Virus record (IMG/VR): IMGVR_UViG_3300017728_000002
Location: 21,482 to 85,481 of that record
Length of the DNA: 64,000 nucleotides
Source: a virus
Reading direction: 5' to 3' (one strand)
Below are positions 10,110-51,539 of the stretch, one piece after another. The stretch's first letter is position 1; each line of letters begins with the position of its first letter. A program made the translations under genes and the position numbers. A model generated the notes under the pieces. That model was not told the DNA's origin, did not search any database, and was given only the letters and a program-made list of their open reading frames with translations.

Positions 10110-10132
10110 ACCTTAAGGTTGTTTTCAATTGC

Positions 10133-10168: not shown

Positions 10169-10176
10169 AATCTACA

Positions 10177-10964: not shown

Positions 10965-11002
10965 GGCTTTATACCTTATATTAAAGTGAGCTTAAAGCTC
11001 AC

Positions 11003-29745: not shown

Positions 29746-32700
29746 ATGTCTGAAAACAACACTACTCCTGATTCTTCTTTTGAATCTCGTCAGGAAGACG
29801 CAGGGCTTACGCCTAAATCCAACATCCGTTTTGGCTTAAAACAAGACCCGCTCTATCAAGAGCAAGGGATGTTTCAAAGCCGTATGACCGAAAATCCGCA
29901 GGTCAAAGGAATAGACGTACAGAAGTATGCCCCTTACACAGGGTACATTACCCACCTTGGCACGCGTGATGCTATGCGGGCACGTGGTCAAAGCGTTGCA
30001 GAAAAGTGGGGCAATGGAATTTATCAAGCTGTAGTAGGCGAAGTAGTTGGGGGCAGTCTTCAAGGCTTAGGAGCCTTAGGTATGCTGGTTGACAGTGAGA
30101 AGAACTTTCTTTATGAGCTAGGTGAAGCCATCAATGAAGGAGCAAGAGACGCTACTCCTATTTATAAGCATAGCGACAAAGCGTTTGCGTTCAATGATGC
30201 TGGTTGGTGGGCCAGTAATCTGGGCAATATTCTTAGCACTGTAAGTATGTTGGTGCCAGGTATGGCAGTGTCCAAAGGTGCAAGTCTAGCTGCTCGAGGT
30301 CTTGTTGCAGCAGGTAAAGCTGGCAAGGCTGTTAAAGCAGGAAAAACCATTGGCAAAGCTGGAAAGGTTGCAGGTAAGGCTGCAGGTGAAGCTGCTGACG
30401 TTACTGCAGATGCTATGAAAGCTTCTGTGCGCGCACAGCGGCTAGAAAAAACCATGCAAACAGTTGCAGGTGGTTATGGCATGCGTCACGCTGAAAACAT
30501 TCGTGAAGGCGTAGATGTCGCTGTCCAAGCTGAGGAAGAGTTTATGCAAGATGGGCGGGCTTTAGAAGATTTTAAAGGGACTGTTGCGTACGATCAATAC
30601 CTCAAGGATCACGATCAGAAAGCGCCTATGAACAAGCAAGAGCTTGCTTCGTATGTCGGAGGTCAAGCAGCAGTGCGTTCGTATCAATTTAACATGTTGA
30701 ATCTGGTATTTGATGTGTTTCAAATGGGTACAATTTTTAAGCCCTTTAAAGCTGTAACGCGCGGTCAAGGTGTAGGTAAAGTAGGAGCTGCAGCCGCTGG
30801 TAAAGCAGCCGCTGGATTGGATAAAGGAACGCGTGCTACTCGAGCTTTAGAGAAAAGCAAAGGATTCTTAACTGAAGTGGGCAAAGCTGCTACAGAGGGC
30901 ATAGAAGAGTCAATCAACTTTATGGGAAGTGGCGAGGGCATGGCCCGTGCAGAATATTTAAGAGGGGTAGAGACTGGAAGCTTTGGAGAACGTCTTGACG
31001 ATTACTTCCACGACTCGCACTTGTATGAAAGTGCTTTCTGGGGTTTCCTTGGAGGAGGAGTGTTTCAAGGTCTTGGGTCCATTATGGGCAAGAAGCAAGA
31101 TGCTGCTATGACTTCTTTGCTTCGCCAGCAAGAAACCTTGGTTCGCGAAAGCGCAGAACTAGCCAAGGCTGAGAAAAGTGGCGATACAGAAAAAGCCAAT
31201 CAAATTCGAGCCAGGGTAATGGCTGATTTGGGCATCCGTGCTAGCCAATCTGGACGTGTAGATCAATTGCTAGATCAGCTCAATAGCGATGACTTCATGA
31301 AGCAGCTCCAAGAGCAAGGTCTGTTGGGCGAAAAGAGCATTGAAGAAGCTCGTAATGAACTGATTGAAGGCGTATTAAAGCAAGAAAAAGACTACAAGAA
31401 GATTGCTGAAGTTGCGGAAGAATACGGGTTGAGTAGTCAGGAAATGTTTGTCTTGCTTAAACAGCAGAACTCGTATGATGCTGGGTTAAAAAGCATTGCT
31501 GAGAAGCTTGAAGCAATTGACGATGCAAGCATTACTGAAGATCAAAAGCTTGCAGCTAAGTTTCAGCTGCGCGATTCGTTGGTTGAGCTTCAGAAGAAGG
31601 TAAAAAAGGAAAAGGGCAAAGACTCAAAGACTCCGTTTGGAGCAGAGTTAAAAGCGTTGCAGGAAGAGCTTAAAGACAAGGAGAAGCCTGCTGAGTTTGA
31701 GAAACTGCTGACCTACGAGGCTTTCAATCAAGCAAGGTTGTTGGCCGAACAAACCAGGTTAAAGCGAAAGCGTGCTGAGCTTACTACTGAACAGTCTCTT
31801 GCATATACTCGAACTACAGTAAATGCGTACAACAAGAATCAAGAAAAAGTCATTGCTGCTAGTTTCAAAAAGAGAGTTGCTGAAGAAGAAAATCTAGATA
31901 TTCTCAATAAACTTCTTGAACAGGCCAAACGAAATAAAGCTAAAGACCAGGAAATACTAATATCTGAGCGCATTGCTGAATTGAAAAAAACCAATGCTGA
32001 CAAAACAGATGCAGACAAAGCTCAAGAGGAAAATGAAGAAGGAGGTACTCCTGTACCTAAAGATGACTCTACTGAAGAAAATGAGCCTCCTACAGAAAAT
32101 GAACCTTCTAAAGAGAATGAGCCTCCTGAAGAGAATGATCCTGATGTAAGTGATGTTCTACCTGAAGGAGTAGTTCTCGAAGATGATGACGAGGTAGACT
32201 ACACCCTTGCTTATAGAGAGCCTTACGCTGATGGTTCTCCTTTTGATTTTGGTTCATTAACCAATCAGGAACGAAGGTTTTTAGATGCTTTAGATAACTT
32301 AGATACCGCTGAAACAGTGGAGAAAGCTCAAGCCCTTGTTTCTTTTGTACGCAACTACATTTTAAAGCAGCAAGAAGAAGGGAAGCCAATTAAACGCAAG
32401 TTTGATGGTAAAGTGGTTGACCAGGCTATTGCATATTTAGCAGAGGCTGAAAAAACTCCACCAGCTGCACCACAAGATTCTGCACCACAAGATTCTGCAC
32501 CACAAGATCCTACTTCGGACCCACCTACAGACCTACCTACAGATGACTTAGAGAATAGTACAGTCAAGGCTTTGAAAGCCATTGCTCGTCAAGAAGGGTT
32601 GACAGGTTATTCTAAGTTGAACAAGGCAGAGCTAGTTGCTGCTATTCGTGCACATCGTGAGCAAGCTACTTTGTTTCCTGAAAATAAAGTAACTCCACCT

Positions 32701-35700
32701 ACAGATGAATCGCCTGCTGAAAAGAAACGGAGAGAATCGCAGCAAAACCGTGTTGAGAAGCACAGCAAAGAACTTTATGAAGCGTTAGAAAGCTATGCAG
32801 AAGCTGTAGCTAATAGAGATGCACTTCAAGATTCTAAGAATGCAGATAGTAAGGAAGCTGTTGCTGCTGAACTAGCCGCAGACAAAGCGGCAATGAAAGT
32901 GTTAAATGCCTTAAATAATCTTACTAGTCACAGTCTGTTGTCTCAACAGAACAAAGTAGAAAGCTACATCTCTTCAGACTTACGTGAGTATATGGAGCTA
33001 GCTACAGAGACTTTAGAACAAGATGGTTACACTTCAGATCATGTAAAACCTGGTCAAGTATATGACGAAACGTTGTCGGTAGATGTGGAGATTGTTAACG
33101 ACGAAACTTTAGAGCCAGGAGTAGAACTTATTCAAAAAATTAATCAACCCGAAATACGTAAAAAAGGAAAGGTGATACAGCGTGGCCAAGTTGTTGTTGT
33201 ACAAGGGCCTTTGCTGAGTAAGCCAGTTATTGAACCAGAAACAGTTGAAGCTCCAGAAGGTCAGATCAAGATGATCATGAATGACTTGATGGAAGCGTTT
33301 TTGCAGCAGATGCAAATTCGCACAAGCGTAACCATGCCTACTACGCGTGTTAGGGAACACGCTCTTATTGAAGGGACTCGCTTGACTTTAGAAGGGCCGG
33401 TGGCAGAGCAGTATGAAGCGCTCATGTTTGCCTTGACTAACCCGTCAGCATCGGTTACAATTCGCATTTCAGACAATCAAGTAGAGGTCAAAAACCCCAT
33501 TTACAAAACATCGGTAAACAACAAGCTTGGGGTCAAATCTTTGACGCGAAAGACTGTTGGGTCAAAGACGTATACCTACGAAAACGAAGAAGACAACTCT
33601 CCTGACTACGAGGTTGTCGTTGAGTATCAGGGTAAAACTGTAGTCATTGGAAATGTACCTAGGGTGGGTACGTTGTTGAAGCAAGCTTCGCGTCTTCAAA
33701 ATCAATACCGCAATCAGCCAACAGGCGATGACGCAGACGCAAACCCATACTGGAGAAACGCATATGCAGATGCCAACCTCAATGCATTGCAAGCCATTAG
33801 ACATGCAGATGCGATAGCTCTATTTAGAAAATATCTGGATTCTCAAGACAGCGGATCTATCTCGTTTACTGGGTTGTCTGAGCAAATTGCCCTAGACGGC
33901 AGCTTTAAGCGCGGTAGTCTGCTTCGTCCTAGCGATCAAATGGATACGCTAAATATGCATCCAGAAGTCACAGATGCCATAGACGAACACGGGCTGTGCG
34001 TCATGATGACTGATCCTTCTAGTGGAGAGCCTTATCTGTTGAATCTAAAAACGGGTTTAAAGACTGCAGTACCATACCAAGATGGTGTGATGGCTATGAA
34101 TGCTCAAGCAGGGACTTATGCGTTTAAAAACCAGTCTAACAAGATCTCTAGTACCGGAGCAGTTTTCATTCCTATCCGAGATCCCAACTCACCTTTAAAG
34201 CCAATGTGGGTTCGCATGCCCGACATGACTTTGAAAGAGGCCAATCGTACCGACTTTGTAAGCAACATCTTGTACGGACCAGGCACTTCAGAACAAAAGT
34301 TTGAATTGCTTCGAAGTGTAATGTCTACACCGCCTCCAAGTGTGACATCTGAAAGTCAGATCATGGAAGGGTTCACAGGCGCAGCTTTTATAAGCGGACC
34401 GTCTAATGGACAACCTCGATTGGTTATTCTCAAAGACAGGAAGATTGTCATGGACTTTAATCCAGATGGCACGCCTCGCACTGAGATTCAAAAAGCTGTT
34501 CTTGAGCAGCTGAAGTTTAGGCTAGATGCAAAATCGCCCGAGCTTGCCAGCTACGAAAAAGAAGGAAAACGAGACGAGGAAACTAGGCAAACTTTAAAGT
34601 CGTTAGCTCAAAGCATTAAGCAAAACGGTAGAATGCCTATTGCTCCCGTTGTTAAAAAAGACAGTGCGGGTAATGATGTAATCATAGGCTACCACCATCC
34701 TGTTCCTGCTGCACGATTTGAACGAGACAGAGAAGCGCAATCTCAAAACCAACTGTTCAACCCAGAGGCTCAGAGTACCATGCTGCCTATTGCCATTGAT
34801 ATGGCACGTCTTCAAGCTCAAAACCCAGAAGCTCCTGCATCACCAGATACAAAACCTACAGACACTTCTGATCCGAAGAAGTCCAACGAAAAAGGGGGGG
34901 AGTCGACTGATTTTTGGAATGAATCAGATGACGGTGCAATGTTTATGACTGTAGAAAAGGCTTTAGCAAGCGACTTTTACGCCATGTCTACCTCTAAAGA
35001 TCAGTTAGAAGCGGAGTTGTGGCTTGCTAAAAACCTGCCTCACGTTCCGTTTCGAAGAGTCAAGGGCCTTATTGAACGTGGCGGTGTTACCGCATACGGT
35101 ATATGGGAACAGGGTATGATCAGGGTCAGTGATATATCTGTAGTAGGTACAGAGTATCACGAAGCCTTGCACGCTGTAATGGACACATACCTTTCTCCTA
35201 AGCGAAGAGCAAAGATTATGGCTGAAGCCCGTGCTAAGTATGGAGACTTAGGGCCTATCAAGCTAGAAGAAAAGATTGCTGAGGCTTTTCGAGAGTACAT
35301 GCTAACGGAAGGAAAAAGCATGACAGAGAAAAGTGCACTGCGCCGGTTTTTCTCTGAGATACTGGCATTGGTTCAAGCCATGTTCCAAGGACAATACCGT
35401 ACTCGGCAGTTGATGCAAAACATCAACAGAGGGAGGTATGCGTATAAGCCTAGCCAGCGCTCTAAAAACTTTCTGACTAAGTTCAGTAAGGTTCCTGCCT
35501 TTGATGCTGCTGAAATGAGCGAGCTAGAGCAGGTCATGCCTTTTTTGGTAAACTACATCCTTAAAGACATTCGTGAAGCATTTGTAGGGAACAATCCAAA
35601 AGACGTGCTTATGCGACGTTATGGAAGGGAAGAAGACGCCCAAGTACTTGAAGGATTGCTCCAAACGATAGCAGAGATTAAAGACTTGTCTGTAGAATCA

Positions 35701-38700
35701 GATGAAGACGGAAATACAATAGAAATTCAGCGAGAGAAAAAGAAGCTCATAGCTGAAGGTATTATTCGCGTAATTTTTGATAGTCGTGGGTTGTTCCAAT
35801 ACATGATTAAGTCTTCAAGTAGAGCGTCTGAAGAAAGAAAACTAGAGATCTATGATCGGTTAGGTCATAACGAAGAAGTACTGGTTGAACACTTCAGTAC
35901 AAACCCAAGAGTGCAGCGCATGATTATGCAAGCAATTGCAATTGATGCCAGCACAGGTACCACGGACATAGAGCAGAACTTCTCTGCTAGCATAGCAGAA
36001 ATCAATCCTATGGATAAGGTTCCTGCCAGTATCAAGAACTTGATTTCAAGAACCATTTACATCCCTGGAGACAGAAGTGGTCGCTTGATTGAAACAATCT
36101 TAGGTAATCAAGGTACCGAAGCAGCTCTTGAAGCCATTGCAGAAGTGTCAGGCACTGACGTAGATAAATCTGATGCCTTCAGTCGATTTGGCTTGCCTCG
36201 GTTTTTACAGTTTGAAACGGTGTATCCTTTCCTGTTAAACCAGTTGAGTTCGCTGCCTTCATACGAAGCTATGGAAACCCGGATGCTAGAGTTGAGCGTG
36301 TACAACCCAAGCTTGGCATCTATTGTTTTGGCATTGCGTAAAGACGCTGAGCCAGGCACACTTACAGAACTGCAAAAACAATTCTATGTGGGCATGAAAC
36401 GCGCAAGCTCAGAAGAGCTGAACGTTTCTTTGGAAACCCAGTATGATGAAAGAGTTGAACGGAAATTTCAAGTACCTGTAGTAAAAGATGAGTTCATTTA
36501 TGAACCGGCCTGGCATTTGGTCCAACGTAACAAGGAGGCTGTTTACAACGCCATCCTTCAGTTTACTCCAGCGGAAAAGGAAAAGGTCCTAAATGCTTTA
36601 AGTGCGTTGGCAAAACAGCGTAACGAAACTCCTGAAGTAAGAGTTAAAACCATTAAAATTTTGGTTAGGACTTTTCAAAAACTTGAGTTTTCTACTATGG
36701 ACCCTTCTGCATTGGCTAACGCTATGCATGTTATGTCTAATAATGAATTAGGCGGGTTAGCTGATATGCTTGAACGTCTCATTCTTGCTGGAAATGAAGC
36801 GCAGACTTCAGCAATACTTAGGGAGGTGGTACGAATTATGAAGCTTGCTGACGCAGACATGGGCGCAGTTCAAAGCTCGTATATGTCTAATCTGAAAACC
36901 AAGTATGCTCACGTCAATCCTTCTTATTTAACCGAAGAATTAGACCGCTTAAAAAGCGCCTTTAAAGAAGAATACCTTAAAGAAAGGTTTGCCCACAATG
37001 CTCATTTAGAAGAGAGTATGTGGCATATTATGTTGGATGAAGAGTCTTTAACCTATCGCAGGTTTGGACAACTGGGCCCGCATGCATACACCGATATGGA
37101 TGTAGCGCAAAGGCTTGAGTATGACCTTCTAGCATTGTTTAGAATGGGTAAAAATGCTCAAGGACGTCAGATCAGAGTTACGGGGTACTCTGCAATCCCT
37201 ACACCTAGCGATGCAACTGGATCGTTTATGGTCAGTAACGACTTTGTACATTATCCTGAAAACGTTAAAAACAGGATTTTAGCCAGTATCTACGACGCAG
37301 AGACACGTAAAGACGTAACCCATATGTCTTTGCCTATTGATCGTAGTAAAGTAGACATCAATAGCATAGAGTCTAAAGCCGAGTATATGCGTGCTTTGCT
37401 AGAGCAAGAAGCCGCGGCATTGCTGTCTATTCCAGAGTTCAAAGAAGTCATAGACAAGCTACAAGTTCCTTTAGGGTATGGACCAGTCGAGGGACGCAGT
37501 CGAGATGAGGGCCGCGTTACGATGGTCAACTCATATGTAGCCGCTACATATGTATCCAATTGGAACGTGTCTAATTGGATGGGTGGAACCATTGATCACT
37601 TTGGAGGAGACGTTACCAAGTATCAAAAGCGTTTTAAGCAGATTATGAGCCCTGGGCAAACCAGCGCAGATAAAGGCACGTTTAGAAACGTAACCATTGA
37701 AGATCCCGTAGTTTTTGAAGACTGGGCAACAGAAGTAGAGTACTCTGACAATGGCAAACCGGTTAAGAACGCGGACGGAACTTACCGTCGTATTCCATCT
37801 GCCATTGATCGTGCTGATGCACAGAGCTATGTAACGCTAGACTTTTGGGAGCGGATGCTTTCTTCTCATGGAGAGCTTACAGACTATAAGAAAGCGGTCA
37901 TAGAAAAAGCCCGTAAAGGAGAGGCTCTAAGTGTGTCTGAGCGTTCAGTATTTGCTCCATACAAGCCCTTCTACTTTGGATGGGTTCAAGGCCAGCCGCA
38001 CCAACTTAAAAACTCTGTCATCCCACTTTTACCACCGGTCAAAGGTCAAGCTCCCATTAGCGTAGAACTAGAGGCTATGCGTAAGTGGATGGTACACCCA
38101 GATAATAAAGTAGATCAAATCACTTTGAAGTCTGCGCACAAGGTGGGTGTGACCAGCAAGGCTACTTCTATGTTTCAGGATGGCAAGTTCAAAGCACCAG
38201 AGCCTGGGTACACTCAGTACGACTTGCCCATGGAGTTCCACCGCAATCAAGTGTCTATTACAGAACACAACAACCACAATGGAACAGTAGGCTTGGGTAC
38301 TCAAACAGGTCCAATCATTATGTCTAACCTCAGGAATTATGAGGGGTTAGGGGAAGTACACATCCAAAAGTTGCTTAAGACAGAGCAACGCATGATGAAC
38401 ATGAAACTCAAGGAGCTTAAAGGCAAGCTCTTTGTACAAGGCACAGAATTAGGCAAGAACGGCGAGGAAGATGTAAGCAAGCGCACAGTTCCAGACGTAG
38501 CTCGTGTACGGCAGTATGTGCTAGACAACGTGCGTGATGATGTGCATCCAGCAGTTCTGGAAATTCTAAGCTCTCCCTTGGCTTCAGCAGGACGCATTAG
38601 TCCTTTGGTTGCTTTTGCGGTAAACCAAACTTTAGCAGCTGCCGTTCAAAAGGACTTTAAGAAGCAGAAAGTAACAGGCGGTATGCAGGTACAAATCTCT

Positions 38701-41700
38701 GATCTAGGCCATACCAATCCTACCACAGATGCGGACTTAAAAGGCATGCGTGTAGTAGGAAGTCAGCAAGAAGTTGAAGGTCCTTACACTTGGGACGACT
38801 CTATGGCTACAGATTTAATTGTGGGGATGAATAACCGAGAGTTTGTAGTTGTAAAACTTGGAGAATCCCCAAAAACAGGTCGAGAACTAAATGCTGATGA
38901 TTTTTTAAATGGACTTAAAGAAGGTTTTGAAGTCATAGACATGCATGGTAAAAAGCCTATGACCGTAGGCTTAGATTCAGCCATGGCTTCGTTAATGAAG
39001 CGAGATTTTGAAAAATGGTTAACTACTAAGAAAAATCTTAAAACACGTCCACAATCATTAGTTACTCCAGAATATATCAGTGACTATTCAGACCCAAAGC
39101 GAGAGCTGGCTCGCTACGTAAAAGAGCGTCAAACGAATAGAAAAGACTTTGAAGTTGATCCTGAACTAGAGTTGGCTTATGAATACTATCGATCTAAAGA
39201 GATTGATTCAGATAGGAATAACGAGGCTTTTACGTCTTCTTCTTCTTCTCTGCCTACAGGACCAGAAAAAGTTGTAATGGCCGAGGTCAAGATGAACAGA
39301 AAGTTCTTGCCTAAGCAATACAGGGAAATGAGCATTGAAGAGATTCGTGCCATTGACCCTACACTGCTTGAAGTCATGGTCTATCGTGTTCCTGCAGAAG
39401 GAAAGAATTCTATGGCCATGTGTAAGGTGGTGCAGTTCTTGCCTTCAGGTCAAGACGGCATGGTCATCCCCGCAGCTTTTGTAGCTCAAATGGGATCAGA
39501 CTTTGACATTGACAAGCTCTTTGTGAATTGGAAGAAGGTGCCTAGGGAAGGCAGAGAGCTCAATGCTTACGACCGAGCAGCCAATAAGTTTTTTGATTTA
39601 CAGAAGGATGTGCTGATGAATCCTGAAGTGGTAAAGACAGAAGTGCTTGTACCACAGGGCTTTGAAACCATTAAGGCGTTTCGTACGGAGATGGCTACTG
39701 CCCGCAGGAAAGGAGGGGTTTCAGACATTGATGTCTTTGCTCAAAGACGTCCGTATAGTGCTTTGACTCACTTGCAATTGTGGTCAGACAATGTAGCAGG
39801 CATTGGATTGAAAGGCATTGCTGCCAACAACAATACGTTTTGGATGAAAGTCCAACGTCACAACATGCAAGTGGAAGGAATTCCTATGAAGGATATGCCG
39901 CTTGAGTTGATGCAATGGAATGCAGAAGCAGTAGCTGCTTCTATGGACGGCGCAAAAGACCCTGTCTGGGGTACTATGGGCATTGACCGCAAGAACTTCT
40001 CGTTCTTCATGTACGAGTGTACCATGGGGTACATGCGGGCAATGAAAGAGAACCCAAGTGCAGACAAGGTTAAAACCTTGAATAAAGCTCGAAATGAAGC
40101 ATTAGCGGCAGCAACTGATTCAGATGTTATGCAAGCCATGACCACACGGGTTAATGACTTTAATGCAGAAACAGAAAAGACAGACAACGTAAAACGGTAT
40201 CAGGCTTATTTAAAGCAAGAGGCATACCGGGCGTTGAAAGACTTGACCCGTGTCAGTGAGATGAAAATCAATAAGGAGTTGATTGATCTTCTTGCAGCTA
40301 AAGAGCCCGTTCTAGATAATTATAACCTTACTCTAGACGCTGAAGGCAATATTATTTTAGACAGCGATGGTAACCCAGAGTTGCAAGCGGTAAAAGACGC
40401 CAAAGGAAACACTCTTCCAACCATGGGAAAGGCTTATGTCAATGCTCCTGTCATTAAAGGCGCTTTGGATATTGCCACTGCTTCAGAGTTGCTGATGAGT
40501 GGCGGTATGGGGATTCACTATTACCGCACTGTAGGTCGTTATAACGGCATCAGTTTCCCGCAATACTGCGCGGTTCAAACCTTTAAAGCAGCTGATGAAT
40601 TTGTAGAAGGCAAGCGCGCAGAGGTCATGGGTGAGAGAAGCGTCAGTGAGCGTTTTAGAGAAGTGGACCTAGAGGATGTTCAGTCTTGGAACATGCGTCA
40701 TTGGATCGTTTGGTTGAATACATCTGACGAAGGCCGAGCAATTCGAGACGACAAAGACAACGCGTTCTTGCGTAAGATGCTCTTGCATATCACGGTAGGC
40801 CGAGCCTACGAAGTAAACTACAATCGTTACGATCGGATAACGCCAATCCAGCTTAACGACCCTATCAAAGCAGAAGAGTTTCAAAAGGCTTGGGAAAACA
40901 CATTGACTCCGCCTTTATCCTATGAAGGGTCTGTTCACTACCCTTCTGAGTTTGCCAAAGCCTTAGTTCGCTACGAAGCTGCACGCAGTGGGTGGAGACG
41001 AGGGTCTTCAACCTTCACGCAGTTCTTGCCTACGGAGATTGTAAAAAATGTAAGCGGAGAGGACGCTACATCCTTGCAGATTGCAGCTCATGCTGTGTTG
41101 GATTCTAGGGTAGAGTCCGGTACAGAAAAAATGGCTTTGCTCAGCAACAGGCCTATGCGCTATGGTAAGCACACTTACGTGACTTTGCCTGGCGAAAACA
41201 GGCGGACAAAAGTGACCACTCCTGTTTTGATGCTTGGGTTCAGAGGCATGTCATCTATAGATGCTATTGCAGGTGAGTTGCAGGTCAACCAATCCACTGT
41301 AGAGGAAGAGATAGCTGAGTACAAAGCCAAGCAAAAGAAGAGTCAAAGCCTTGAAGCATTTGGAGATATTGCTTCATCTACTACTACTTCTGAGCGCATT
41401 GCTATGCTTCAGAGTCGGTTTGCTTCTTATGGTATTAAGGTAAGAGTGGAGTTTGATTCCACTTTAGAAGGTGCCGGTGATGTGCAGTACGATAAGGAGT
41501 CTGGGGTCATTCGACTCCACCCTGATCGCATGAAAAGCGATACGGTCTTGCACGAGTTTGGTCACATCTACATTGAGATGTTGGGGTTTGAAAACCCTGC
41601 TGTTCAGCAAGCCATTGAAGAGTTGCGCAACACTGAGCTGTATCGAGAGGTAGCAGAGATGTATCCACACTTAAGTCAAAGAGACTTAGATATGGAGGTT

Positions 41701-44700
41701 TTGGCTACAGCTATAGGTCTTGAAGGAGACGCCATCTATGACAAGGCTAAGAACCCCAACAAGCTTCGTACCCTGATCAATAAACTCTTTAGGGCTTTAG
41801 GTAAGTTGTTTGGTATCCAGCCTAACACCGCTCGGGAGTTGGCACGTAAGATGATTGAAGGGTCTGATGTTAGGACCAACAACTTAAAGTCATTCCGTGC
41901 AGAGCAACGATTGAAGAAAGGTTTGGATGCTCAGACCCTAATGATTGAGGTAGCTGATGAGATTATGAACCGCATCGATCATATGCGGCGATTGGGTGCC
42001 ACTACCGAGGAGCAGCAAGTGCTTCTAGACAGCTTGCAAGAGGACTCTAGTATGTTTAGAGAAGTAGCAGAAAGTGGAGCTACAGCTGTATTGGATTCTC
42101 TGGTGGTTGCAATGTCAGACTACTTGCAAAAAACTACTGAGTTTATCTCTCATGCGGAAACATATGTAGACACTTCTTCAGCAGCCGGGCTTAAAAAGCA
42201 AGACACTGAATTGTTGAACCAGGCGTATCAGCTGAGTCAAGTGCTGAATACGTTTTCTCAAACGTTTGCCAGCTTTGATAAAGACACTGTAGATGTAGAT
42301 TTTGATCAGCAAGAGCGGTTTGCAACAACCAACAAAGCTTTTGTGGAAATGGCAGGTCCTGTTCAGGTTATGCAAACCCGCTTGACCAGCTTGGTACGTA
42401 AGATGCTGAACAAAAAGCTGGTGGCTAATTCTAGTAACCCTAGGATCAAAGAAGCCATGGAAGCAGGGTTGGACATTTTCTCTTTGGCTCAAACTGAATT
42501 TGGCGACATCACTACCGATACTTCTAAAGGAGAAGTGCAGTTTATGGGATTGCTCGATCAAGACTCTAATGCTGTGCTTACTCTGTTTGGTAAGACTTTG
42601 CGTGATGTAGTCAACACCGAAGAGCTGCAGAGTAAGCAAGACATTCAAAAGCTTTACTCTATCCTAGATGACTTTGAAAGTCAGGGAGGATCTATCGAAT
42701 CTCTTTTAGATGAAGATGGTCAAAGCTTTGTGAGTCCTTATCGAGATGCATTTTATTCAGCTCAATCCAAAGCAACCAACCGTCGCAAGTGGAGAGCAAT
42801 GAACATGGAGCAGAAGTATGTAGAGTCTTACTACCTCGAGCATGTTTACTCTAAAGACCACAAAGACATCAAAGTACTCAAAGAAGAGATTGCTAGGTAT
42901 GAAGAGGGAGCCAGGGCAGGCACCCTTACAGAAGCAGATAAGCTTCATTTAGACCAGCTTCAAGAAGACCTGGCAACCAGAGAGCAATCTCTAGAGAGTT
43001 TTAAAAAATACCATGAACCTGTCTGGGACTTAGAGAAGTTTGAAAAGGACAAAGCAGATGCTGAATCGCAAGGGCCAGATGTAGCAGCAGCTTGGAAAGC
43101 AGCGTATGTGCACTCCAGCGGCAAGCCTAAGTTCAACAGTCCTTACTACAAGACTTCTAAGGTGAAAGACAAGTTCTTGAATCCTAAATGGACAGGGACA
43201 GACATGCCTAAAGCCAAATGGTTAAACCCGAAAGCAAAGGAGTTATCTCCTCTGCAGCAAGAGACCATTGAAGCTTTGAAAAATCTGATGAAAAATGCTG
43301 TAGGGTTTGAAGATCACCGGATGTTCAACGAGAGTTTGATTCCTCAGATTGAAAACCCAGAATCTAAAAGCCTAACAGAAGTATTGCGTGACATGCCACG
43401 TGAAGCCCTAGAGACAAACAAAGACACGGCTCGCATGGGCACAGATAGTGAAGGGCGGAAGATCTTCTTGCGTGGAGGGTTGAAGCACAGCAGGCGAAGT
43501 GATGGGTTAGTTTCTACAGACTTAAGAAAAACCATCGCTCAGTTTGTTGTAGAGGCTAGGGCTGCTAAAGCTGCCAATAACATTGAGACGTTCTCTTTGA
43601 TGACTCGCGATGAGCTTGGTCGTATGGAGCTAACTGCTCGAAAAGGTTGGAGTATGGGTAGGGTAGATGGTAAGCGCTTGAACTTAAACGACAACAAACG
43701 CGCTGGAACCATCAAAGGAGACCGGAGTAACTCTATGGATGTAATAGAGCATGTCTTAGAAGGTTACTTAGGGCAAGGGTGGCAAACTACAGGTAAGTAT
43801 GACTCTCAAGCCGCTCTTCTGCAGAGCTATATTTCGTTCCAAGGTATTGGCTTTAACCCTTCGGCATGGGTCAACAACATCATGTATGGTGAGCTTATGC
43901 AAATCTTGGATGCCGTTGGAGGAGATATGTATACAAGTGAGAGCTTGAACTTGGCTAAGAAACAGGTATACGCAGGCATTAGAGACCTGGCGTTAGCTCG
44001 CGACAAAGGCACCAAGCCAAAAACAAGGTTGGCTGCGGTCATGCACTTCTTTGATGCAACCATGGATCAAAGGGAATTGCCTGAGACCAGCGAGTTGCTA
44101 GACAAGTTCTATAACCTGGCATACATCGGTCAAAGCTTTGGTGAGCTGTTGATGCAAAGTCAAGTTGTCCTTGCTATGATGTATGATACAAAAGTGAAGC
44201 TGGACACTGGAGAGACTGTTAACCTCTATGAAGCCTTGACTTGGGACGGAGAAGCCCGAGGTATTGGGTTTAAGGCAGGTAAAGTCATTCGCAAAGACGG
44301 CACTCTGGTTGATTTAGACATAAACTACCTCGGCTCCTTTAAGACCAAAGCTGTAAATGTGCTGCAACGCATTCATGGATCTTATAACGCAGAAGATATG
44401 GGTCGGTTCCATCGCATTGCTGTAGGTAGGCTCGTGCTTCAATTCCGTAAATGGATGCCTCAAGCTTTGAAAAAGCGTTTTGGAGCTGATCGGTTTAGTG
44501 AAGTACGTGAAACTGAGGAGATAGGATATTACCGTGCGCTTTGGGACAAGATTATTGTTCCTGGGGTGATGGGCAACGTAGACGACGCAAAGCGGTTTAG
44601 GTTCTATGCTACCTATCAAAGCCAACCACCGCATGTCCAGAAGGCCATCAAACGAGCTGCCATTGAGATGGGGCTGGGAGTGTCAAGTGCAATCCTTAGT

Positions 44701-45093
44701 TACGTTCTTGCGTCATTGATTGAAGTAGATTCAGATGAAGAAGACGAGTTCTTCCTGTTGAATGACGCGTACTACAAAGCCAAGCTCTTGTACCACACAG
44801 AACGCTTAAACCAAGAGCTTGTGGCATATACTCCTTGGGGTATGTACGATACGGCTTTGAGGATTGGTCAAGACCCTGCAGCTGCTTCTAGACAGCTTAA
44901 GACGATGTTCAAGTTTATGCAACAAGCCGTCTATGGATTGGCTCCTGGCGTAGAGTTGGAGCGCTTTAAAGGCGGACGCAATTATGGTGATCTGAAGATC
45001 AGTACGTATGCTTTACAGCTATTGCCGCTTCTTAAGCAAGCTCTTCGTGAGATGAATACCATCTCAAGCCATACGATCTATAAGTTGAGTTAA
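29746..45093 (+). CDS. Giant virion RNA polymerase polyprotein (5115 aa) with two zincin-like HExxH domains and Rho-N-like and GrpE-like inserts
   Basis: Catalytic GSDFDIDKLF (39499-39513) preceded by YRVPAEGKNSM; DAQSYVT, KPFYFG, SAHKVG, DGAKDP; HEALH at 35158-35172 and HEFGH at 41551-41565; C-terminal RIHGSYN...GRLVLQFRKWM. Confidence 0.93.
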   Translation: MSENNTTPDSSFESRQEDAGLTPKSNIRFGLKQDPLYQEQGMFQSRMTENPQVKGIDVQKYAPYTGYITHLGTRDAMRARGQSVAEKWGNGIYQAVVGEVVGGSLQGLGALGMLVDSEKNFLYELGEAINEGARDATPIYKHSDKAFAFNDAGWWASNLGNILSTVSMLVPGMAVSKGASLAARGLVAAGKAGKAVKAGKTIGKAGKVAGKAAGEAADVTADAMKASVRAQRLEKTMQTVAGGYGMRHAENIREGVDVAVQAEEEFMQDGRALEDFKGTVAYDQYLKDHDQKAPMNKQELASYVGGQAAVRSYQFNMLNLVFDVFQMGTIFKPFKAVTRGQGVGKVGAAAAGKAAAGLDKGTRATRALEKSKGFLTEVGKAATEGIEESINFMGSGEGMARAEYLRGVETGSFGERLDDYFHDSHLYESAFWGFLGGGVFQGLGSIMGKKQDAAMTSLLRQQETLVRESAELAKAEKSGDTEKANQIRARVMADLGIRASQSGRVDQLLDQLNSDDFMKQLQEQGLLGEKSIEEARNELIEGVLKQEKDYKKIAEVAEEYGLSSQEMFVLLKQQNSYDAGLKSIAEKLEAIDDASITEDQKLAAKFQLRDSLVELQKKVKKEKGKDSKTPFGAELKALQEELKDKEKPAEFEKLLTYEAFNQARLLAEQTRLKRKRAELTTEQSLAYTRTTVNAYNKNQEKVIAASFKKRVAEEENLDILNKLLEQAKRNKAKDQEILISERIAELKKTNADKTDADKAQEENEEGGTPVPKDDSTEENEPPTENEPSKENEPPEENDPDVSDVLPEGVVLEDDDEVDYTLAYREPYADGSPFDFGSLTNQERRFLDALDNLDTAETVEKAQALVSFVRNYILKQQEEGKPIKRKFDGKVVDQAIAYLAEAEKTPPAAPQDSAPQDSAPQDPTSDPPTDLPTDDLENSTVKALKAIARQEGLTGYSKLNKAELVAAIRAHREQATLFPENKVTPPTDESPAEKKRRESQQNRVEKHSKELYEALESYAEAVANRDALQDSKNADSKEAVAAELAADKAAMKVLNALNNLTSHSLLSQQNKVESYISSDLREYMELATETLEQDGYTSDHVKPGQVYDETLSVDVEIVNDETLEPGVELIQKINQPEIRKKGKVIQRGQVVVVQGPLLSKPVIEPETVEAPEGQIKMIMNDLMEAFLQQMQIRTSVTMPTTRVREHALIEGTRLTLEGPVAEQYEALMFALTNPSASVTIRISDNQVEVKNPIYKTSVNNKLGVKSLTRKTVGSKTYTYENEEDNSPDYEVVVEYQGKTVVIGNVPRVGTLLKQASRLQNQYRNQPTGDDADANPYWRNAYADANLNALQAIRHADAIALFRKYLDSQDSGSISFTGLSEQIALDGSFKRGSLLRPSDQMDTLNMHPEVTDAIDEHGLCVMMTDPSSGEPYLLNLKTGLKTAVPYQDGVMAMNAQAGTYAFKNQSNKISSTGAVFIPIRDPNSPLKPMWVRMPDMTLKEANRTDFVSNILYGPGTSEQKFELLRSVMSTPPPSVTSESQIMEGFTGAAFISGPSNGQPRLVILKDRKIVMDFNPDGTPRTEIQKAVLEQLKFRLDAKSPELASYEKEGKRDEETRQTLKSLAQSIKQNGRMPIAPVVKKDSAGNDVIIGYHHPVPAARFERDREAQSQNQLFNPEAQSTMLPIAIDMARLQAQNPEAPASPDTKPTDTSDPKKSNEKGGESTDFWNESDDGAMFMTVEKALASDFYAMSTSKDQLEAELWLAKNLPHVPFRRVKGLIERGGVTAYGIWEQGMIRVSDISVVGTEYHEALHAVMDTYLSPKRRAKIMAEARAKYGDLGPIKLEEKIAEAFREYMLTEGKSMTEKSALRRFFSEILALVQAMFQGQYRTRQLMQNINRGRYAYKPSQRSKNFLTKFSKVPAFDAAEMSELEQVMPFLVNYILKDIREAFVGNNPKDVLMRRYGREEDAQVLEGLLQTIAEIKDLSVESDEDGNTIEIQREKKKLIAEGIIRVIFDSRGLFQYMIKSSSRASEERKLEIYDRLGHNEEVLVEHFSTNPRVQRMIMQAIAIDASTGTTDIEQNFSASIAEINPMDKVPASIKNLISRTIYIPGDRSGRLIETILGNQGTEAALEAIAEVSGTDVDKSDAFSRFGLPRFLQFETVYPFLLNQLSSLPSYEAMETRMLELSVYNPSLASIVLALRKDAEPGTLTELQKQFYVGMKRASSEELNVSLETQYDERVERKFQVPVVKDEFIYEPAWHLVQRNKEAVYNAILQFTPAEKEKVLNALSALAKQRNETPEVRVKTIKILVRTFQKLEFSTMDPSALANAMHVMSNNELGGLADMLERLILAGNEAQTSAILREVVRIMKLADADMGAVQSSYMSNLKTKYAHVNPSYLTEELDRLKSAFKEEYLKERFAHNAHLEESMWHIMLDEESLTYRRFGQLGPHAYTDMDVAQRLEYDLLALFRMGKNAQGRQIRVTGYSAIPTPSDATGSFMVSNDFVHYPENVKNRILASIYDAETRKDVTHMSLPIDRSKVDINSIESKAEYMRALLEQEAAALLSIPEFKEVIDKLQVPLGYGPVEGRSRDEGRVTMVNSYVAATYVSNWNVSNWMGGTIDHFGGDVTKYQKRFKQIMSPGQTSADKGTFRNVTIEDPVVFEDWATEVEYSDNGKPVKNADGTYRRIPSAIDRADAQSYVTLDFWERMLSSHGELTDYKKAVIEKARKGEALSVSERSVFAPYKPFYFGWVQGQPHQLKNSVIPLLPPVKGQAPISVELEAMRKWMVHPDNKVDQITLKSAHKVGVTSKATSMFQDGKFKAPEPGYTQYDLPMEFHRNQVSITEHNNHNGTVGLGTQTGPIIMSNLRNYEGLGEVHIQKLLKTEQRMMNMKLKELKGKLFVQGTELGKNGEEDVSKRTVPDVARVRQYVLDNVRDDVHPAVLEILSSPLASAGRISPLVAFAVNQTLAAAVQKDFKKQKVTGGMQVQISDLGHTNPTTDADLKGMRVVGSQQEVEGPYTWDDSMATDLIVGMNNREFVVVKLGESPKTGRELNADDFLNGLKEGFEVIDMHGKKPMTVGLDSAMASLMKRDFEKWLTTKKNLKTRPQSLVTPEYISDYSDPKRELARYVKERQTNRKDFEVDPELELAYEYYRSKEIDSDRNNEAFTSSSSSLPTGPEKVVMAEVKMNRKFLPKQYREMSIEEIRAIDPTLLEVMVYRVPAEGKNSMAMCKVVQFLPSGQDGMVIPAAFVAQMGSDFDIDKLFVNWKKVPREGRELNAYDRAANKFFDLQKDVLMNPEVVKTEVLVPQGFETIKAFRTEMATARRKGGVSDIDVFAQRRPYSALTHLQLWSDNVAGIGLKGIAANNNTFWMKVQRHNMQVEGIPMKDMPLELMQWNAEAVAASMDGAKDPVWGTMGIDRKNFSFFMYECTMGYMRAMKENPSADKVKTLNKARNEALAAATDSDVMQAMTTRVNDFNAETEKTDNVKRYQAYLKQEAYRALKDLTRVSEMKINKELIDLLAAKEPVLDNYNLTLDAEGNIILDSDGNPELQAVKDAKGNTLPTMGKAYVNAPVIKGALDIATASELLMSGGMGIHYYRTVGRYNGISFPQYCAVQTFKAADEFVEGKRAEVMGERSVSERFREVDLEDVQSWNMRHWIVWLNTSDEGRAIRDDKDNAFLRKMLLHITVGRAYEVNYNRYDRITPIQLNDPIKAEEFQKAWENTLTPPLSYEGSVHYPSEFAKALVRYEAARSGWRRGSSTFTQFLPTEIVKNVSGEDATSLQIAAHAVLDSRVESGTEKMALLSNRPMRYGKHTYVTLPGENRRTKVTTPVLMLGFRGMSSIDAIAGELQVNQSTVEEEIAEYKAKQKKSQSLEAFGDIASSTTTSERIAMLQSRFASYGIKVRVEFDSTLEGAGDVQYDKESGVIRLHPDRMKSDTVLHEFGHIYIEMLGFENPAVQQAIEELRNTELYREVAEMYPHLSQRDLDMEVLATAIGLEGDAIYDKAKNPNKLRTLINKLFRALGKLFGIQPNTARELARKMIEGSDVRTNNLKSFRAEQRLKKGLDAQTLMIEVADEIMNRIDHMRRLGATTEEQQVLLDSLQEDSSMFREVAESGATAVLDSLVVAMSDYLQKTTEFISHAETYVDTSSAAGLKKQDTELLNQAYQLSQVLNTFSQTFASFDKDTVDVDFDQQERFATTNKAFVEMAGPVQVMQTRLTSLVRKMLNKKLVANSSNPRIKEAMEAGLDIFSLAQTEFGDITTDTSKGEVQFMGLLDQDSNAVLTLFGKTLRDVVNTEELQSKQDIQKLYSILDDFESQGGSIESLLDEDGQSFVSPYRDAFYSAQSKATNRRKWRAMNMEQKYVESYYLEHVYSKDHKDIKVLKEEIARYEEGARAGTLTEADKLHLDQLQEDLATREQSLESFKKYHEPVWDLEKFEKDKADAESQGPDVAAAWKAAYVHSSGKPKFNSPYYKTSKVKDKFLNPKWTGTDMPKAKWLNPKAKELSPLQQETIEALKNLMKNAVGFEDHRMFNESLIPQIENPESKSLTEVLRDMPREALETNKDTARMGTDSEGRKIFLRGGLKHSRRSDGLVSTDLRKTIAQFVVEARAAKAANNIETFSLMTRDELGRMELTARKGWSMGRVDGKRLNLNDNKRAGTIKGDRSNSMDVIEHVLEGYLGQGWQTTGKYDSQAALLQSYISFQGIGFNPSAWVNNIMYGELMQILDAVGGDMYTSESLNLAKKQVYAGIRDLALARDKGTKPKTRLAAVMHFFDATMDQRELPETSELLDKFYNLAYIGQSFGELLMQSQVVLAMMYDTKVKLDTGETVNLYEALTWDGEARGIGFKAGKVIRKDGTLVDLDINYLGSFKTKAVNVLQRIHGSYNAEDMGRFHRIAVGRLVLQFRKWMPQALKKRFGADRFSEVRETEEIGYYRALWDKIIVPGVMGNVDDAKRFRFYATYQSQPPHVQKAIKRAAIEMGLGVSSAILSYVLASLIEVDSDEEDEFFLLNDAYYKAKLLYHTERLNQELVAYTPWGMYDTALRIGQDPAAASRQLKTMFKFMQQAVYGLAPGVELERFKGGRNYGDLKISTYALQLLPLLKQALREMNTISSHTIYKLS
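32465..32508 (+). repeat. 15-bp tandem repeat (CTGCACCACAAGATT)x3 encoding SAPQD in an RNAP linker
   Basis: Read directly from the sequence. Confidence 0.9.
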
Positions 45094-49355: not shown

Positions 49356-51539
49356 TTATAGAGAGTTTATAGCTTGACGGTAGAGATCGTCACTAGTATG
49401 TTGATGTAGGATACTATTCAGTATCACGGTTCCTGCTGGCGTCTTCTGAAGTTGTTTCTGGATGTTTCTAAATTGAGCAGCTACCTTGTTAGGCGTGTAT
49501 ACTGCTCCGTTGTGCTGTAATATACTGAATGATTCTACAGATGGGGCTTCTATGTCAAATATTTCGCTGTTTATGACACTGTAAATCCAACCATTAGACT
49601 TTTTAGGTCTAGGAGGTAGTGTAAGGTGTTCTTTCAAGCACCCAAGTCGCATCAAAGTAAATCCTTGTAAGCAGTAGCTATGAATATGTTCTTTAAACCA
49701 CTGCCACTGGCTGTGTTCTAGGTTTTTAGCTTGCTGTCGTAAGATGATTTGCTTCAACTTGGCTAGATCCCAGCACTCTACACCGGACTTTTGAAGTCGC
49801 TTAAAGTTGCCGTCACTAGCGCAGTACAAGTCTTTAGGCAACACAACATTCCACTCAATAGCCTTGGCATACTTGTATTGAATGACAATTGCTTTGGTGT
49901 CTTTAAGCTCCTTGTAAGTCTTTGTTGTGCGGGTGTATGCATTATTCTGTACCACCTTTACAGGCAGTTCCGTTTTCAGCATCTCCGCAGTCCAATTAGA
50001 GCCAGTCTTACGACGAAGCTTAAGGTTTTCCTTACGGTCTACAAGCCATTTCTCTGTAGGTGTGTAATCTGCATATTTCTCTGTGTGTTTTTGAAAGAAC
50101 TCGTTGAGTATCACAGTAATGATCTGTTCAATCTTATTGTGTATCTCTTCTTTACGGTTTTCATCTACATTGTTTAAACCATACCTGCATACCTCTTGAA
50201 TAATGGGCATGAAGTTTTGGTTTACGTTAAAAATCAAAGCATAGGTGGTGGTTAGGTTGTTGTTCTCTTGAAAGAATTCTTTCCAAACCGTACCCAGTCT
50301 TTGATCTCCACGCTTTCTAATCATCGTGTAAGTAGCGGACGTGTTCGGTACTCCCTTGACAATGTCACGACCACTTAGTGTAGATACAGATCGCCACTTA
50401 CCTATTTGCAAGTCTAGTTTAGCACTAGGCTCTAAAAGTTGACCAACGATGCTCGTAAACCGGTCTTCTTGAACTTCTTTAGGCCAACCTTCAACGCTTG
50501 AGGTAAGGTGAAAATGGCGAGTACTTGCAATAATTTGATGAGTATCCGGATACACCAACTCGTTTTTACGAGAGCCATACCCATAAAGCAATTTGAGGTC
50601 TGTAGAATATCCTGATTGGGCTTGTTGCCATGTTTCAAACACAGAATTTACTTGACTCAACTTTTGATCAAGCAGTTCTTTGGCGTTGTCGTTTAACTCC
50701 AAACCTTCTCTAGACAAGGTTGGGTTGATCTCGCCAATGTTCAGCTTAATCACAAAGTTGGTCAGATAACTGTCTCCATCCAGGTGCGGAATTTTGTACA
50801 AAACATTGCCTAACGAAACCATTAGCCCGTTATGGCAAAGGGTTCTGTCGTTCTGCTCAATCCTTAAGAAAGACCCGTAATCAAAGACTTTGCTTTCATT
50901 GAATATGAATTCGCCAGGAAGAGAGATGCTCAGCATATGACCAAGAAGCACCAACTGGTTCTCTATGGCCATTACAAATTGAGTTGTATCAGCACGAGAA
51001 TACACGGGGATCGTGATTAACGTACCGTTGCTTTCATCGGTTTCAATCTCATTGATCATAGTGCATGTGCGCTCTGCACTGCTCTTTTCCATGAGATAAC
51101 TCCGCTTGACTCCGTCTATATAAGTTGTGACTTGAAAGACAGGAGTGTAAGCAAAGGGACTCTTTGCACCGATACCGAATCCACCAATCTGTTCGTTAGA
51201 ATCACGTTTGGTAGAGGCAAAGTATTGCGTGAAGATGTTCTCAATGCGGTTAGGAGTAATGCCAGGACCGAAGTCTCGCACACTAAACTCGCCTACAGCG
51301 TTACTCAAGCTTGGCACATTGGTCAGCTTTACTTGAACTTTCTGAGTGGAACGGGCTTCTTGGTTAGCGTCGACAGCATTGGACACGACCTCTCGGACGA
51401 TAGACCCATACTTGTCTTGGTATACTGAGTTAGACATTAACTCAGCGAGGTGTGTTGCGGCATCTGCTGCAAACCCCATTTTAATCTTTTGCCCCGACAC
51501 AGTAGACTCGTACTGTCGTTGGGCTGTATTCATTTTCAT
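49356..51539 (-). CDS. rIIA: RIIA-like protein (GHKL/Hsp90-type ATPase N-terminus)
   Basis: REVVSNAVDA, VRDFGPGI, YFASTKRDSNEQIGGFGIGAKSPFAY, NGTLITIP; adjacent to rIIB. Confidence 0.88.
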   Translation of the reverse strand: MKMNTAQRQYESTVSGQKIKMGFAADAATHLAELMSNSVYQDKYGSIVREVVSNAVDANQEARSTQKVQVKLTNVPSLSNAVGEFSVRDFGPGITPNRIENIFTQYFASTKRDSNEQIGGFGIGAKSPFAYTPVFQVTTYIDGVKRSYLMEKSSAERTCTMINEIETDESNGTLITIPVYSRADTTQFVMAIENQLVLLGHMLSISLPGEFIFNESKVFDYGSFLRIEQNDRTLCHNGLMVSLGNVLYKIPHLDGDSYLTNFVIKLNIGEINPTLSREGLELNDNAKELLDQKLSQVNSVFETWQQAQSGYSTDLKLLYGYGSRKNELVYPDTHQIIASTRHFHLTSSVEGWPKEVQEDRFTSIVGQLLEPSAKLDLQIGKWRSVSTLSGRDIVKGVPNTSATYTMIRKRGDQRLGTVWKEFFQENNNLTTTYALIFNVNQNFMPIIQEVCRYGLNNVDENRKEEIHNKIEQIITVILNEFFQKHTEKYADYTPTEKWLVDRKENLKLRRKTGSNWTAEMLKTELPVKVVQNNAYTRTTKTYKELKDTKAIVIQYKYAKAIEWNVVLPKDLYCASDGNFKRLQKSGVECWDLAKLKQIILRQQAKNLEHSQWQWFKEHIHSYCLQGFTLMRLGCLKEHLTLPPRPKKSNGWIYSVINSEIFDIEAPSVESFSILQHNGAVYTPNKVAAQFRNIQKQLQKTPAGTVILNSILHQHTSDDLYRQAINSL

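Follow-up and report, generated by a model that had tools for sequence, protein, structure and literature searches.

A divergent GrpE-like module in the predicted RNA-polymerase polyprotein of a crAss-like phage

GrpE, the partner of the Hsp70/DnaK chaperone, has been treated as a free housekeeping co-chaperone of ~20 kDa. Solved examples include those of E. coli (PDB 1DKG), Geobacillus (4ANI), Thermus (3A6M) and M. tuberculosis (8GB3) and the mitochondrial GrpEL1/Mge1 (9BLS), in which a long helix is followed by two shorter helices and a C-terminal six-stranded beta domain that ends the unit. Hsp70-family ATPases, sometimes with private GrpE partners, also work outside housekeeping proteostasis and next to restriction systems, as in the dedicated Hsp70 + GrpE pairs of prokaryotic conflict systems (Kaur et al., 2020, PMC7159879) and the Hsp70-like CnuD of CoCoNuT systems (Bell et al., 2024, PMC11090510); those are cellular operons in other lineages and with other partner genes, and none is a virion-delivered GrpE-like domain. 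Phages that bring their own co-chaperone to redirect a host chaperone have precedents in T4 gp31, a GroES substitute, and the RB43 J-domain protein Rki, but these are free early proteins for GroEL or J-domain partners of DnaK rather than a nucleotide-exchange-factor fold fused into an injected polyprotein. The "GrpE-like" region of Litunavirus/Luzseptimavirus tail fibres (PMC12625404) shares only the name and a long helical coiled coil in a phage structural protein, since it is a trimeric coiled coil without the GrpE beta head and is discussed as an adhesion element. Finally, the large polyvalent proteins of phages and conjugative elements (Iyer, Burroughs, Anand, de Souza and Aravind, 2017; Pfam LPD families) are giant multi-domain proteins, and we found no mention of a GrpE-like domain among their domains.

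Here we describe a GrpE-like module carried within a giant protein of a crAss-like phage. We analysed a 64,000-nucleotide stretch (hereafter the window) of IMG/VR record IMGVR_UViG_3300017728_000002. A preliminary description had claimed, from the sequence alone, that a helical stalk and a GrpE-type beta domain are embedded in a virion RNA polymerase (RNAP) polyprotein, that such a fusion was not known to have been described, and that it may engage DnaK to refold the injected protein or to hijack the host chaperone. Our analysis confirms the observation itself, and we found no paper that describes such a module. The interpretation is partly supported: its structural part holds, while its functional part remains an inference.

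The module and its carrier protein

Window positions 32740-33210 translate in the frame of a 5115-aa open reading frame as residues 999-1155 and give the peptide ETLEQDGYTSDHVKPGQVYDETLSVDVEIVNDETLEPGVELIQKINQPEIRKKGKVIQRGQVVVVQG, preceded by helix-prone sequence. The structured module is slightly longer at its N-terminal end and is flanked by linkers. The features of the polyprotein, all on the plus strand, are as follows.

29746..45093 (+), the 5115-aa polyprotein ORF that carries the module, of crAss-like virion RNAP type
32545..32649 (+), Rho_N/SAP-like helix-extension-helix domain (aa 934-968), upstream neighbour of the module and separated from it by a Pro/acidic linker
32713..33204 (+), complete GrpE-like module (aa 990-1153)
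32713..32832 (+), predicted long N-terminal helix (aa 990-1029)
32719..32763 (+), basic cluster EKKRRESQQNRVEKH at the start of the long helix
32851..33021 (+), predicted second and third helices (aa 1036-1064 and 1071-1092), counterpart of the two GrpE helices that form the four-helix bundle
33028..33204 (+), predicted C-terminal beta domain (aa 1095-1153), counterpart of the DnaK-contacting head of GrpE
35158..35172 (+), HEALH zincin motif (aa 1805)
39499..39513 (+), DFDID motif (aa 3252), the presumed RNAP catalytic loop
41551..41565 (+), HEFGH zincin motif (aa 3936)

The carrier has the DxDxD motif and the relationships expected of the large Crassvirales gene that follows the RNAP-associated zincin gene. 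A tblastn search found distant matches of aa ~3174-3366 (31-48% identity over 60-160 residues) in eight records, the named ones crAss-like phages, and in cr110_1 the match lies in a 13-kb gene that follows the gene for an "RNAP associated protein fused to zincin protease". The DFDID region also matches that of a viral locus (L026) whose ORF likewise carries the module. Because searches of solved structures and PHROG returned no match for the core, polymerase activity itself is inferred. The Rho_N/SAP-like domain matches Pfam PF07498 (E 4.3e-7; 30.2 bits, above the 24.9-bit cut-off) as well as PHROG 2724 and 2250. The domain around HEALH (aa 1759-1915) matches a metagenomic polyvalent protein, P0017 (E 1.4e-19), and the HEFGH region matches that of another, P0008.

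Comparison with GrpE by sequence and predicted structure

The resemblance to GrpE is beyond chance. Pfam GrpE (PF01025) gave E 3.3e-4 for positions 32740-33210 and, for aa 988-1160, E 2.8e-5 and 24.3 bits over profile positions 8-165 of 165, just under the gathering threshold of 25.8 bits; the hit disappears when the 357-aa context is scanned. Four other family members hit the same profile, and for the two whose coordinates were reported the match lies on its C-terminal part. Profile-profile comparison (hhalign) of 145 module sequences against 64 canonical GrpEs gave a probability of 89.7% and P 1.9e-6, in register to the C-terminus and with the second and third helices aligned to the GrpE "LPV.D.leRa" helix and the one after it, whereas nine reversed or shuffled controls gave P >= 0.046. 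An earlier hhalign with only five GrpE sequences had given a probability of 2.6%, and a profile built from the 64 GrpEs scores family members at 12.9 bits or less. Searches with the segment alone were negative: phmmer against PDB sequences found no GrpE, NCBIfam gave no hit, and a word-indexed homologue search restricted to proteins of similar length found only the query itself. A family profile searched against PDB sequences returned only coiled-coil and transmembrane noise, because it included the N-terminal membrane parts of the cellular proteins.

The AlphaFold2 (AF2) model of the module (pLDDT 90.6, pTM 0.83) shows the GrpE order of elements, with DSSP assigning helices at 3-42, 49-77, 84-87 and 90-105 of the folded segment (the last two together forming the third helix, 84-105) and then strands at 108-166. 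Foldseek ranks 1-10 for this model are all GrpE chains. VIA-align with the same whole-module model was swamped by generic helical bundles, and we therefore folded the third helix plus the beta domain separately (aa 1075-1160; pLDDT 91.8). For this model the Foldseek top 10 are again all GrpE (probability 0.99-1.00, TMq 0.55-0.60, rmsd 3.2-5.3 A), while the next fold has TMq <= 0.39. VIA-align, which does not use Foldseek, places four GrpE chains at the top of 48,161 (Z 6.5-4.6), led by 9bls_B (Z 6.5, rmsd 3.0 A over 79 residues) and including 1dkg_B (Z 6.0, rmsd 2.8 A over 75 residues), and the only three chains with Z >= 5 are GrpE. The absence of any GrpE-fold hit had been named beforehand as grounds for rejecting the observation. 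The AF2 monomer packs its three helices into a closed intramolecular bundle, so GrpE-like dimerisation is unproven, although this packing may be an artefact of folding a single chain.

The canonical motifs of the GrpE head (FDP..HEA; QkGY; G-R..iR.A.V.V) are only partly kept. Retained are the aromatic residue plus the D of FDP, the hairpin G-K, the basic residue equivalent to E. coli R183 and the final V.V strand. In contrast, P151, H154, the GY pair and R186 (E. coli numbering) are replaced by E, S, P-E (Q-I in the family consensus) and an invariant Q, such that the window's copy reads Y-D-E, Q-P-E-I and Q at the FDP..HEA, GY and "iRpA" R positions. It is therefore a separate GrpE-like family and not a canonical GrpE. 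Identity to canonical GrpE is about 14-17%, and the window's copy is the family member most like canonical GrpE, having the best Pfam score and 17.3% identity against a family mean of 13.9%. The basic cluster at the start of the long helix is the counterpart of the RGRKQVEK motif in other phage-type modules, and including it raised the Pfam GrpE score from 20.8 to 24.3 bits. In canonical GrpE, basic residues of the long helix contact DnaK subdomain IA and the SBD (PMC10803776); that the two basic clusters are equivalent is our inference.

Relatives in viral and bacterial proteins

The module recurs as a discrete unit, at varying positions, in giant multi-domain proteins (1321 to 7495 aa) of uncultured viruses. 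We found it in P0017 and P0008, in five further such proteins (P0004, P0007, P0010, P0021 and P0029; 1545-7495 aa for the seven) and in viral loci L022-L028, accompanied by LPD22, PBECR1, ddrB-ParB and zincin domains. No Pfam LPD family or other model covers it in the copy searched. In tblastn searches with the region and with a further protein, P0005, 50,697 GenBank phage records and 72,556 plasmids gave no match, and the module is therefore not seen in cultured or named phages at that sensitivity. The family numbers about 160 sequences in this analysis, none with a Pfam family covering the module, and the few named ones are called only "hypothetical protein" apart from one unrelated automatic label.

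An exhaustive sequence search of 1.84 billion proteins found only one kind of non-viral protein, and no canonical GrpE reached E 1e-3. These are membrane-anchored Bacteroidota proteins (for example in Ancylomarina, Plebeiibacterium, Draconibacterium and Xanthomarina, annotated "hypothetical protein") that belong to the same domain family (hhalign 99.9%, P 2e-32; 24-30% identity) and share its invariant residues, including the Q in place of the canonical R. In them the module is the exact C-terminus (125 of 145 module-bearing sequences end at the protein's last residue) and lies behind a hydrophobic transmembrane-like segment in 128 of 130 full-length proteins; they lack the RGRKQVEK-type basic start. 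In 16 of 16 loci the gene is directly followed by an NBD-only Hsp70 gene (PF00012, E 6e-62), and then by a kinase-AAA+ gene where the locus reaches that far. The cassette as a whole comprises an unknown 600-aa protein, the GrpE-like protein, the Hsp70, a Ser/Thr kinase-AAA+ fusion and a small protein. In Plebeiibacterium (locus L006) the five-gene cassette lies at 4187-11803 and its Hsp70 gene at 6952-9507, with the NBD in the first ~380 residues. It is sporadic, occurring in 7 of 401 sampled Bacteroidota genomes, and is also found in a Nautiliaceae genome. Its first protein starts NPFRVLGL, which led us to consider a J-domain, but Pfam gives no DnaJ match and there is no HPD motif; for the small last gene a TerB match reaches only E 0.044. 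In a tree the cassette proteins form one clade (support 0.995), whereas the viral modules form an unresolved grade between that clade and canonical GrpE, and rooting the tree thus failed to show who captured the module from whom.

Possible roles of the module

We tentatively favour the view, held at less than even confidence, that the module works as GrpE does. In this view the small module, an independent bead between flexible linkers, would refold after the polyprotein is ejected into the cell, and its beta head and basic helix would dock on the nucleotide-binding domain of a host Hsp70-type ATPase, with housekeeping DnaK the leading candidate because every host has it. Docking would open the nucleotide cleft and speed ADP and client release, so that DnaK would be held at, and cycled on, the unfolded 5115-aa chain while it enters and refolds. 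The predicted fold, the homology, the modular placement and the strict genomic pairing of the bacterial relatives with an Hsp70 ATPase gene, which is the association expected of a GrpE-type partner, are what our data show; binding, the identity of the Hsp70, nucleotide exchange and any benefit for refolding are inferred. GrpE and HSP70 family searches of the phage's own 85-kb genome found no Hsp70 and no canonical GrpE, so any partner must come from the host. However, the replaced interface motifs suggest that the interface may be tuned to another Hsp70, the nearest cellular relatives serve a specialised Hsp70 and not DnaK, and an exchange factor placed in cis on a client has no known precedent. 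If the module does bind DnaK, it gives a concrete mechanism for how multi-thousand-residue cargo proteins of crAss-like phages are received and refolded in the host, a question open since the cargo-ejection model was proposed. A domain with a predicted GrpE fold here travels inside a virion as part of the protein that must cross the tail and start transcription.

The main rival, which the preliminary description did not consider and which we regard as possible but unlikely, is that the module is a counter-defence decoy. Delivered with the DNA, it would mimic the GrpE-like subunit of the Hsp70-based cassette, bind the cassette's Hsp70-like ATPase and uncouple or lock it before the system can fire. 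The cassette looks defence-like: its kinase-AAA+ protein hits PADLOC IetA, PD-T4-6 and mad6, and in one locus (L006) it lies next to a type I restriction HsdR gene. The only non-viral proteins found by exhaustive sequence search are the cassette's GrpE-like proteins, the invariant Q in place of the canonical R is shared by the phage and cassette forms, and the other viral carriers are polyvalent proteins, a class proposed to pre-empt host defences. Yet capture from the cassette is not shown by the tree, the cassette is rare while the module sits in an essential gene, the phage's host may or may not carry it, and its defence role is putative, its Hsp70 and GrpE-like parts being absent from PADLOC. 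Were this unlikely reading true, uncultured phages would deliver within their virions a mimic that seizes and disarms a private Hsp70 ATPase, and the module would mark both a new class of chaperone-driven defence system, for which it would give indirect support, and its viral antagonist. In either case it defines a new, easily searchable domain family that links phage polyvalent proteins to Hsp70 biology.

It is also unlikely, though not excluded, that the GrpE fold is kept only as an exapted scaffold, a stable helical stalk with a small head serving oligomerisation, spacing or packing of the cargo polyprotein inside the capsid, or binding a non-Hsp70 partner, without chaperone contact. The replaced contact motifs, the beads-on-a-string setting beside a Rho_N/SAP-like domain and low-complexity linkers, the closed three-helix monomer model and the purely structural "GrpE-like" coiled coils of phage tail fibres (PMC12625404) are consistent with this. 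Chance resemblance, in which a coiled coil followed by a small beta hairpin region merely mimics the GrpE pattern, would fit the negative single-sequence searches, the context-dependent Pfam hit and the low probability of the five-sequence hhalign, but is effectively refuted by the profile-profile result against its controls, by the agreement of two independent structural aligners and by the genomic linkage of the cellular relatives to Hsp70. With respect to the scaffold reading, the beta head is the best-conserved part across viral and cellular forms, with family-invariant Y1095, I1129, P1135 and Q1145, which fits a conserved binding surface better than a spacer, and every cellular relative examined is paired with an Hsp70 NBD gene.

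The giant polyprotein that carries the module

The phage record (85,481 bp, of which bases 21482-85481 were analyzed) has direct terminal repeats and is rated 100% complete. The preliminary description pointed to a GrpE-like stretch inside the virion RNA polymerase polyprotein and this observation holds: the stretch lies in frame within a single ORF of 5115 codons and its translation is exactly the peptide originally reported. The ORF and the other features of the genome considered here are as follows:

29746-45093 (+), ORF of 5115 codons
32545-32649, Rho_N/SAP-like helix-extension-helix domain in this ORF, just upstream of the module
32740-33210, GrpE-like stretch in this ORF
35158-35172, HEALH motif in this ORF (residue 1805)
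41551-41565, HEFGH motif in this ORF (residue 3936)
2518-3945 (+), major head protein (PHROG 11589, E 7e-89)
49356-51539 (-), rIIA-like protein (PHROG 612, E 6e-64)
57699-63242 (-), 1847-aa ORF without a PHROG match

The ORF carries DFDID at residue 3252, bracketed by the two zincin-type HExxH motifs. Among GenBank phages its only matches are weak ones around the DFDID region, in 8 records of which the named ones are crAss-like, and in one of these, cr110_1, the matched gene is the 13-kb ORF that follows the gene for an "RNAP associated protein fused to zincin protease". Neighboring genes hit phage head, tail-fibre and rIIA families, although most other large ORFs of the phage have no PHROG match. 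The carrier is therefore a divergent crAss-like polyprotein of the virion-RNAP type, with polymerase activity itself inferred. The domains surrounding both HExxH motifs have relatives in other polyvalent proteins (P0017, at E 1.4e-19, and P0008), and on the basis of these motifs alone self-processing of the polyprotein is possible. The Rho_N/SAP-like domain (Pfam PF07498, 30.2 bits, above the cut-off) is flanked by the repeat APQDS x3 and by PPTENEP-like Pro/acidic linkers.

Resemblance to GrpE and departures from it

Four independent lines of evidence agree that the module is GrpE-like. At the profile level, Pfam GrpE (PF01025) matches residues encoded by 32740-33210 with E 3.3e-4, and when eleven more N-terminal residues are included (aa 988-1160) the match improves to E 2.8e-5 and 24.3 bits, just under the 25.8-bit threshold, and covers profile positions 8-165 of 165. 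Four other members of the family hit the same profile and, for the two whose coordinates were reported, the match is on its C-terminal part. We then collected 145 module sequences and 64 canonical GrpE proteins from two phyla and compared the two alignments with hhalign, which gave a probability of 89.7% and P 1.9e-6 and aligned module positions 55-157 with GrpE positions 98-195 of 196, whereas nine reversed or column-shuffled controls gave P >= 0.046.

The two remaining lines are structural. AlphaFold2 with a 41-sequence alignment gave a model (pLDDT 90.6, pTM 0.83) with a 40-residue helix, a 29-residue helix, a shorter third helix and then six strands, and a Foldseek search of the PDB with this model ranks ten GrpE chains first (1DKG, 4ANI, 9A81, 3A6M, 9BLS/9BLT, 8GB3), after which the E-value jumps to 0.1. 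When the third helix and the beta domain were folded alone (pLDDT 91.8), Foldseek again placed GrpE in ranks 1-10, with TMq 0.55-0.60 and rmsd 3.2-5.3 A. VIA-align, which does not depend on Foldseek, was run with this shorter model against 48,161 representative chains and put four GrpE-family chains on top: 9bls_B with Z 6.5 (rmsd 3.0 A, 79 residues), 1dkg_B with Z 6.0 (rmsd 2.8 A, 75 residues), 4ani_A with Z 5.5 and 3a6m_B with Z 4.6. The only three chains with Z >= 5 are GrpE. A language-model search also lists a GrpE cluster, at rank 7 with a score of 0.90, which is no more than a lead. Taken together, these data effectively exclude a chance resemblance.

Identity to canonical GrpE is nevertheless only about 14-17%, and single-sequence searches and searches of PDB sequences do not reach GrpE. 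The alignments show that the aromatic residue and the Asp of "FDP", the hairpin Gly plus a basic residue (the counterpart of E. coli R183) and the last V.V strand are kept. In contrast, the Pro is replaced by E, the His by S, "GY" by P-E (Q-I in the family consensus) and the Arg of "iRpA" by an invariant Gln. In the monomer model the three helices pack on themselves, so that a GrpE-type dimer is possible but not shown by this model. We therefore regard the module as a separate GrpE-like family, homologous to canonical GrpE but not a member of it.

Viral and cellular relatives of the module

An exhaustive phmmer search of 1.84 billion representative proteins returned 20 hits, of which 17 are true relatives and none is a canonical GrpE. 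The other three (P0003, P0011 and P0018) are tandem-repeat proteins, with repeats such as GTLEPGRSY.ELI and AV.Q.GYAI.., that match a short piece of the query by composition, and these were excluded from all alignments. A profile search added about 140 more relatives, and the whole set falls into two groups.

In the viral or polyvalent type the module lies inside giant proteins of 1321 to 7495 residues from metagenomes and IMG/VR contigs, together with LPD22, PBECR1, ddrB-ParB and zincin domains. It usually starts with a basic RGRKQVEK-like motif, where the phage studied here has KKRRESQQNRVEK. The IMG/VR contig L026 (L026:1-8622) encodes an ORF of at least 2874 aa, open at both ends, with the module near its start and, at its end, a DFDID region that matches the RNAP region of our phage. 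At least one other RNAP-type polyprotein therefore carries the module, with a different spacing between the two regions. No GenBank phage or PLSDB plasmid matched.

The cellular type comprises proteins of 300-430 residues from Bacteroidota and from one Nautiliaceae genome. Here the module is the exact C-terminus (125 of 145 module-bearing sequences end at the last residue of the protein) and lies about 160 residues behind a hydrophobic transmembrane-like segment in 128 of 130 full-length proteins. In all 16 loci examined, with identity among them as low as 34%, the next gene encodes an 851-residue protein with an Hsp70 nucleotide-binding domain only (PF00012 positions 3-376, E 6e-62) and no recognizable SBD. 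Wherever the locus reached far enough, this gene is followed by a Ser/Thr-kinase-AAA+ fusion and a small protein of 165 aa, and the arrangement is preceded by a variable protein of 600-730 residues, making a conserved five-gene cassette in Bacteroidota and one Nautiliaceae genome (L006:4187-11803; also L001-L009 and L029-L035). The kinase-AAA+ protein resembles the PADLOC families IetA, PD-T4-6 and mad6, although the Hsp70 and GrpE-like parts are not in PADLOC, and one locus abuts a type I restriction HsdR gene. The cassette is sporadic, being carried by only 7 of 401 sampled Bacteroidota genomes, and the five carrier genomes that we checked also have a normal grpE. We consider it a candidate chaperone-based conflict system.

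The viral and cellular groups are certainly homologous (hhalign 99.9%, P 2e-32). In a FastTree of 125 columns, canonical GrpE and the cellular type are each clades, with support of 1.0 and 0.995, respectively, whereas the viral modules form an unresolved grade between them, and the direction of transfer therefore cannot be read from this tree.

Possible roles of the injected module

GrpE acts by inserting its proximal beta domain between Hsp70 subdomains IB and IIB, while basic residues of its long helix contact subdomain IA and the substrate-binding domain (PMC10803776). The phage module keeps both elements, its bacterial cousins are invariably encoded next to an Hsp70 ATPase domain in the loci examined, and the phage genome has no Hsp70 of its own. 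Our best reading, which is tentative, is that the ejected polyprotein uses this module to hold and cycle a host Hsp70, with DnaK as the leading candidate because it is universal. The preliminary description had proposed that the module engages the host DnaK either to refold the injected polymerase or to hijack the chaperone, and that interpretation is only partly supported: homology to GrpE, the GrpE-like predicted fold and the genomic pairing of the cellular relatives with Hsp70 are what our analyses show, while binding to DnaK or to any other Hsp70, and the cycling of such a partner, are inferred.

The main rival, which we consider less likely, is that the module mimics the GrpE-like subunit of the bacterial cassette and disables a chaperone-based defence. 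The company of polyvalent-protein domains and the shared Q-for-R change favor this reading, but the rarity of the cassette and the tree do not. A purely structural, exapted role is also possible, though we regard it as somewhat more doubtful still.

In the literature searched, no paper mentions both crAss-like phages and GrpE, and the one paper that mentions both polyvalent proteins and GrpE concerns cellular HSP70+GrpE conflict systems of other lineages. The "GrpE-like" region of N4-like tail fibres is only a coiled coil. What is new here is thus a GrpE-fold domain, as judged from homology and predicted structure, in a new family and in a new, injected context. Private GrpE–Hsp70 pairs are not confined to the cassette described here: on a high-GC contig (locus L104, G007:C327:1-4355, minus strand, ~1410-2450 and 3-1406) a second, more canonical extra GrpE, scoring 51.8 bits against our 64-GrpE profile and 60.1 bits against Pfam PF01025, is encoded directly upstream of an extra Hsp70 gene.
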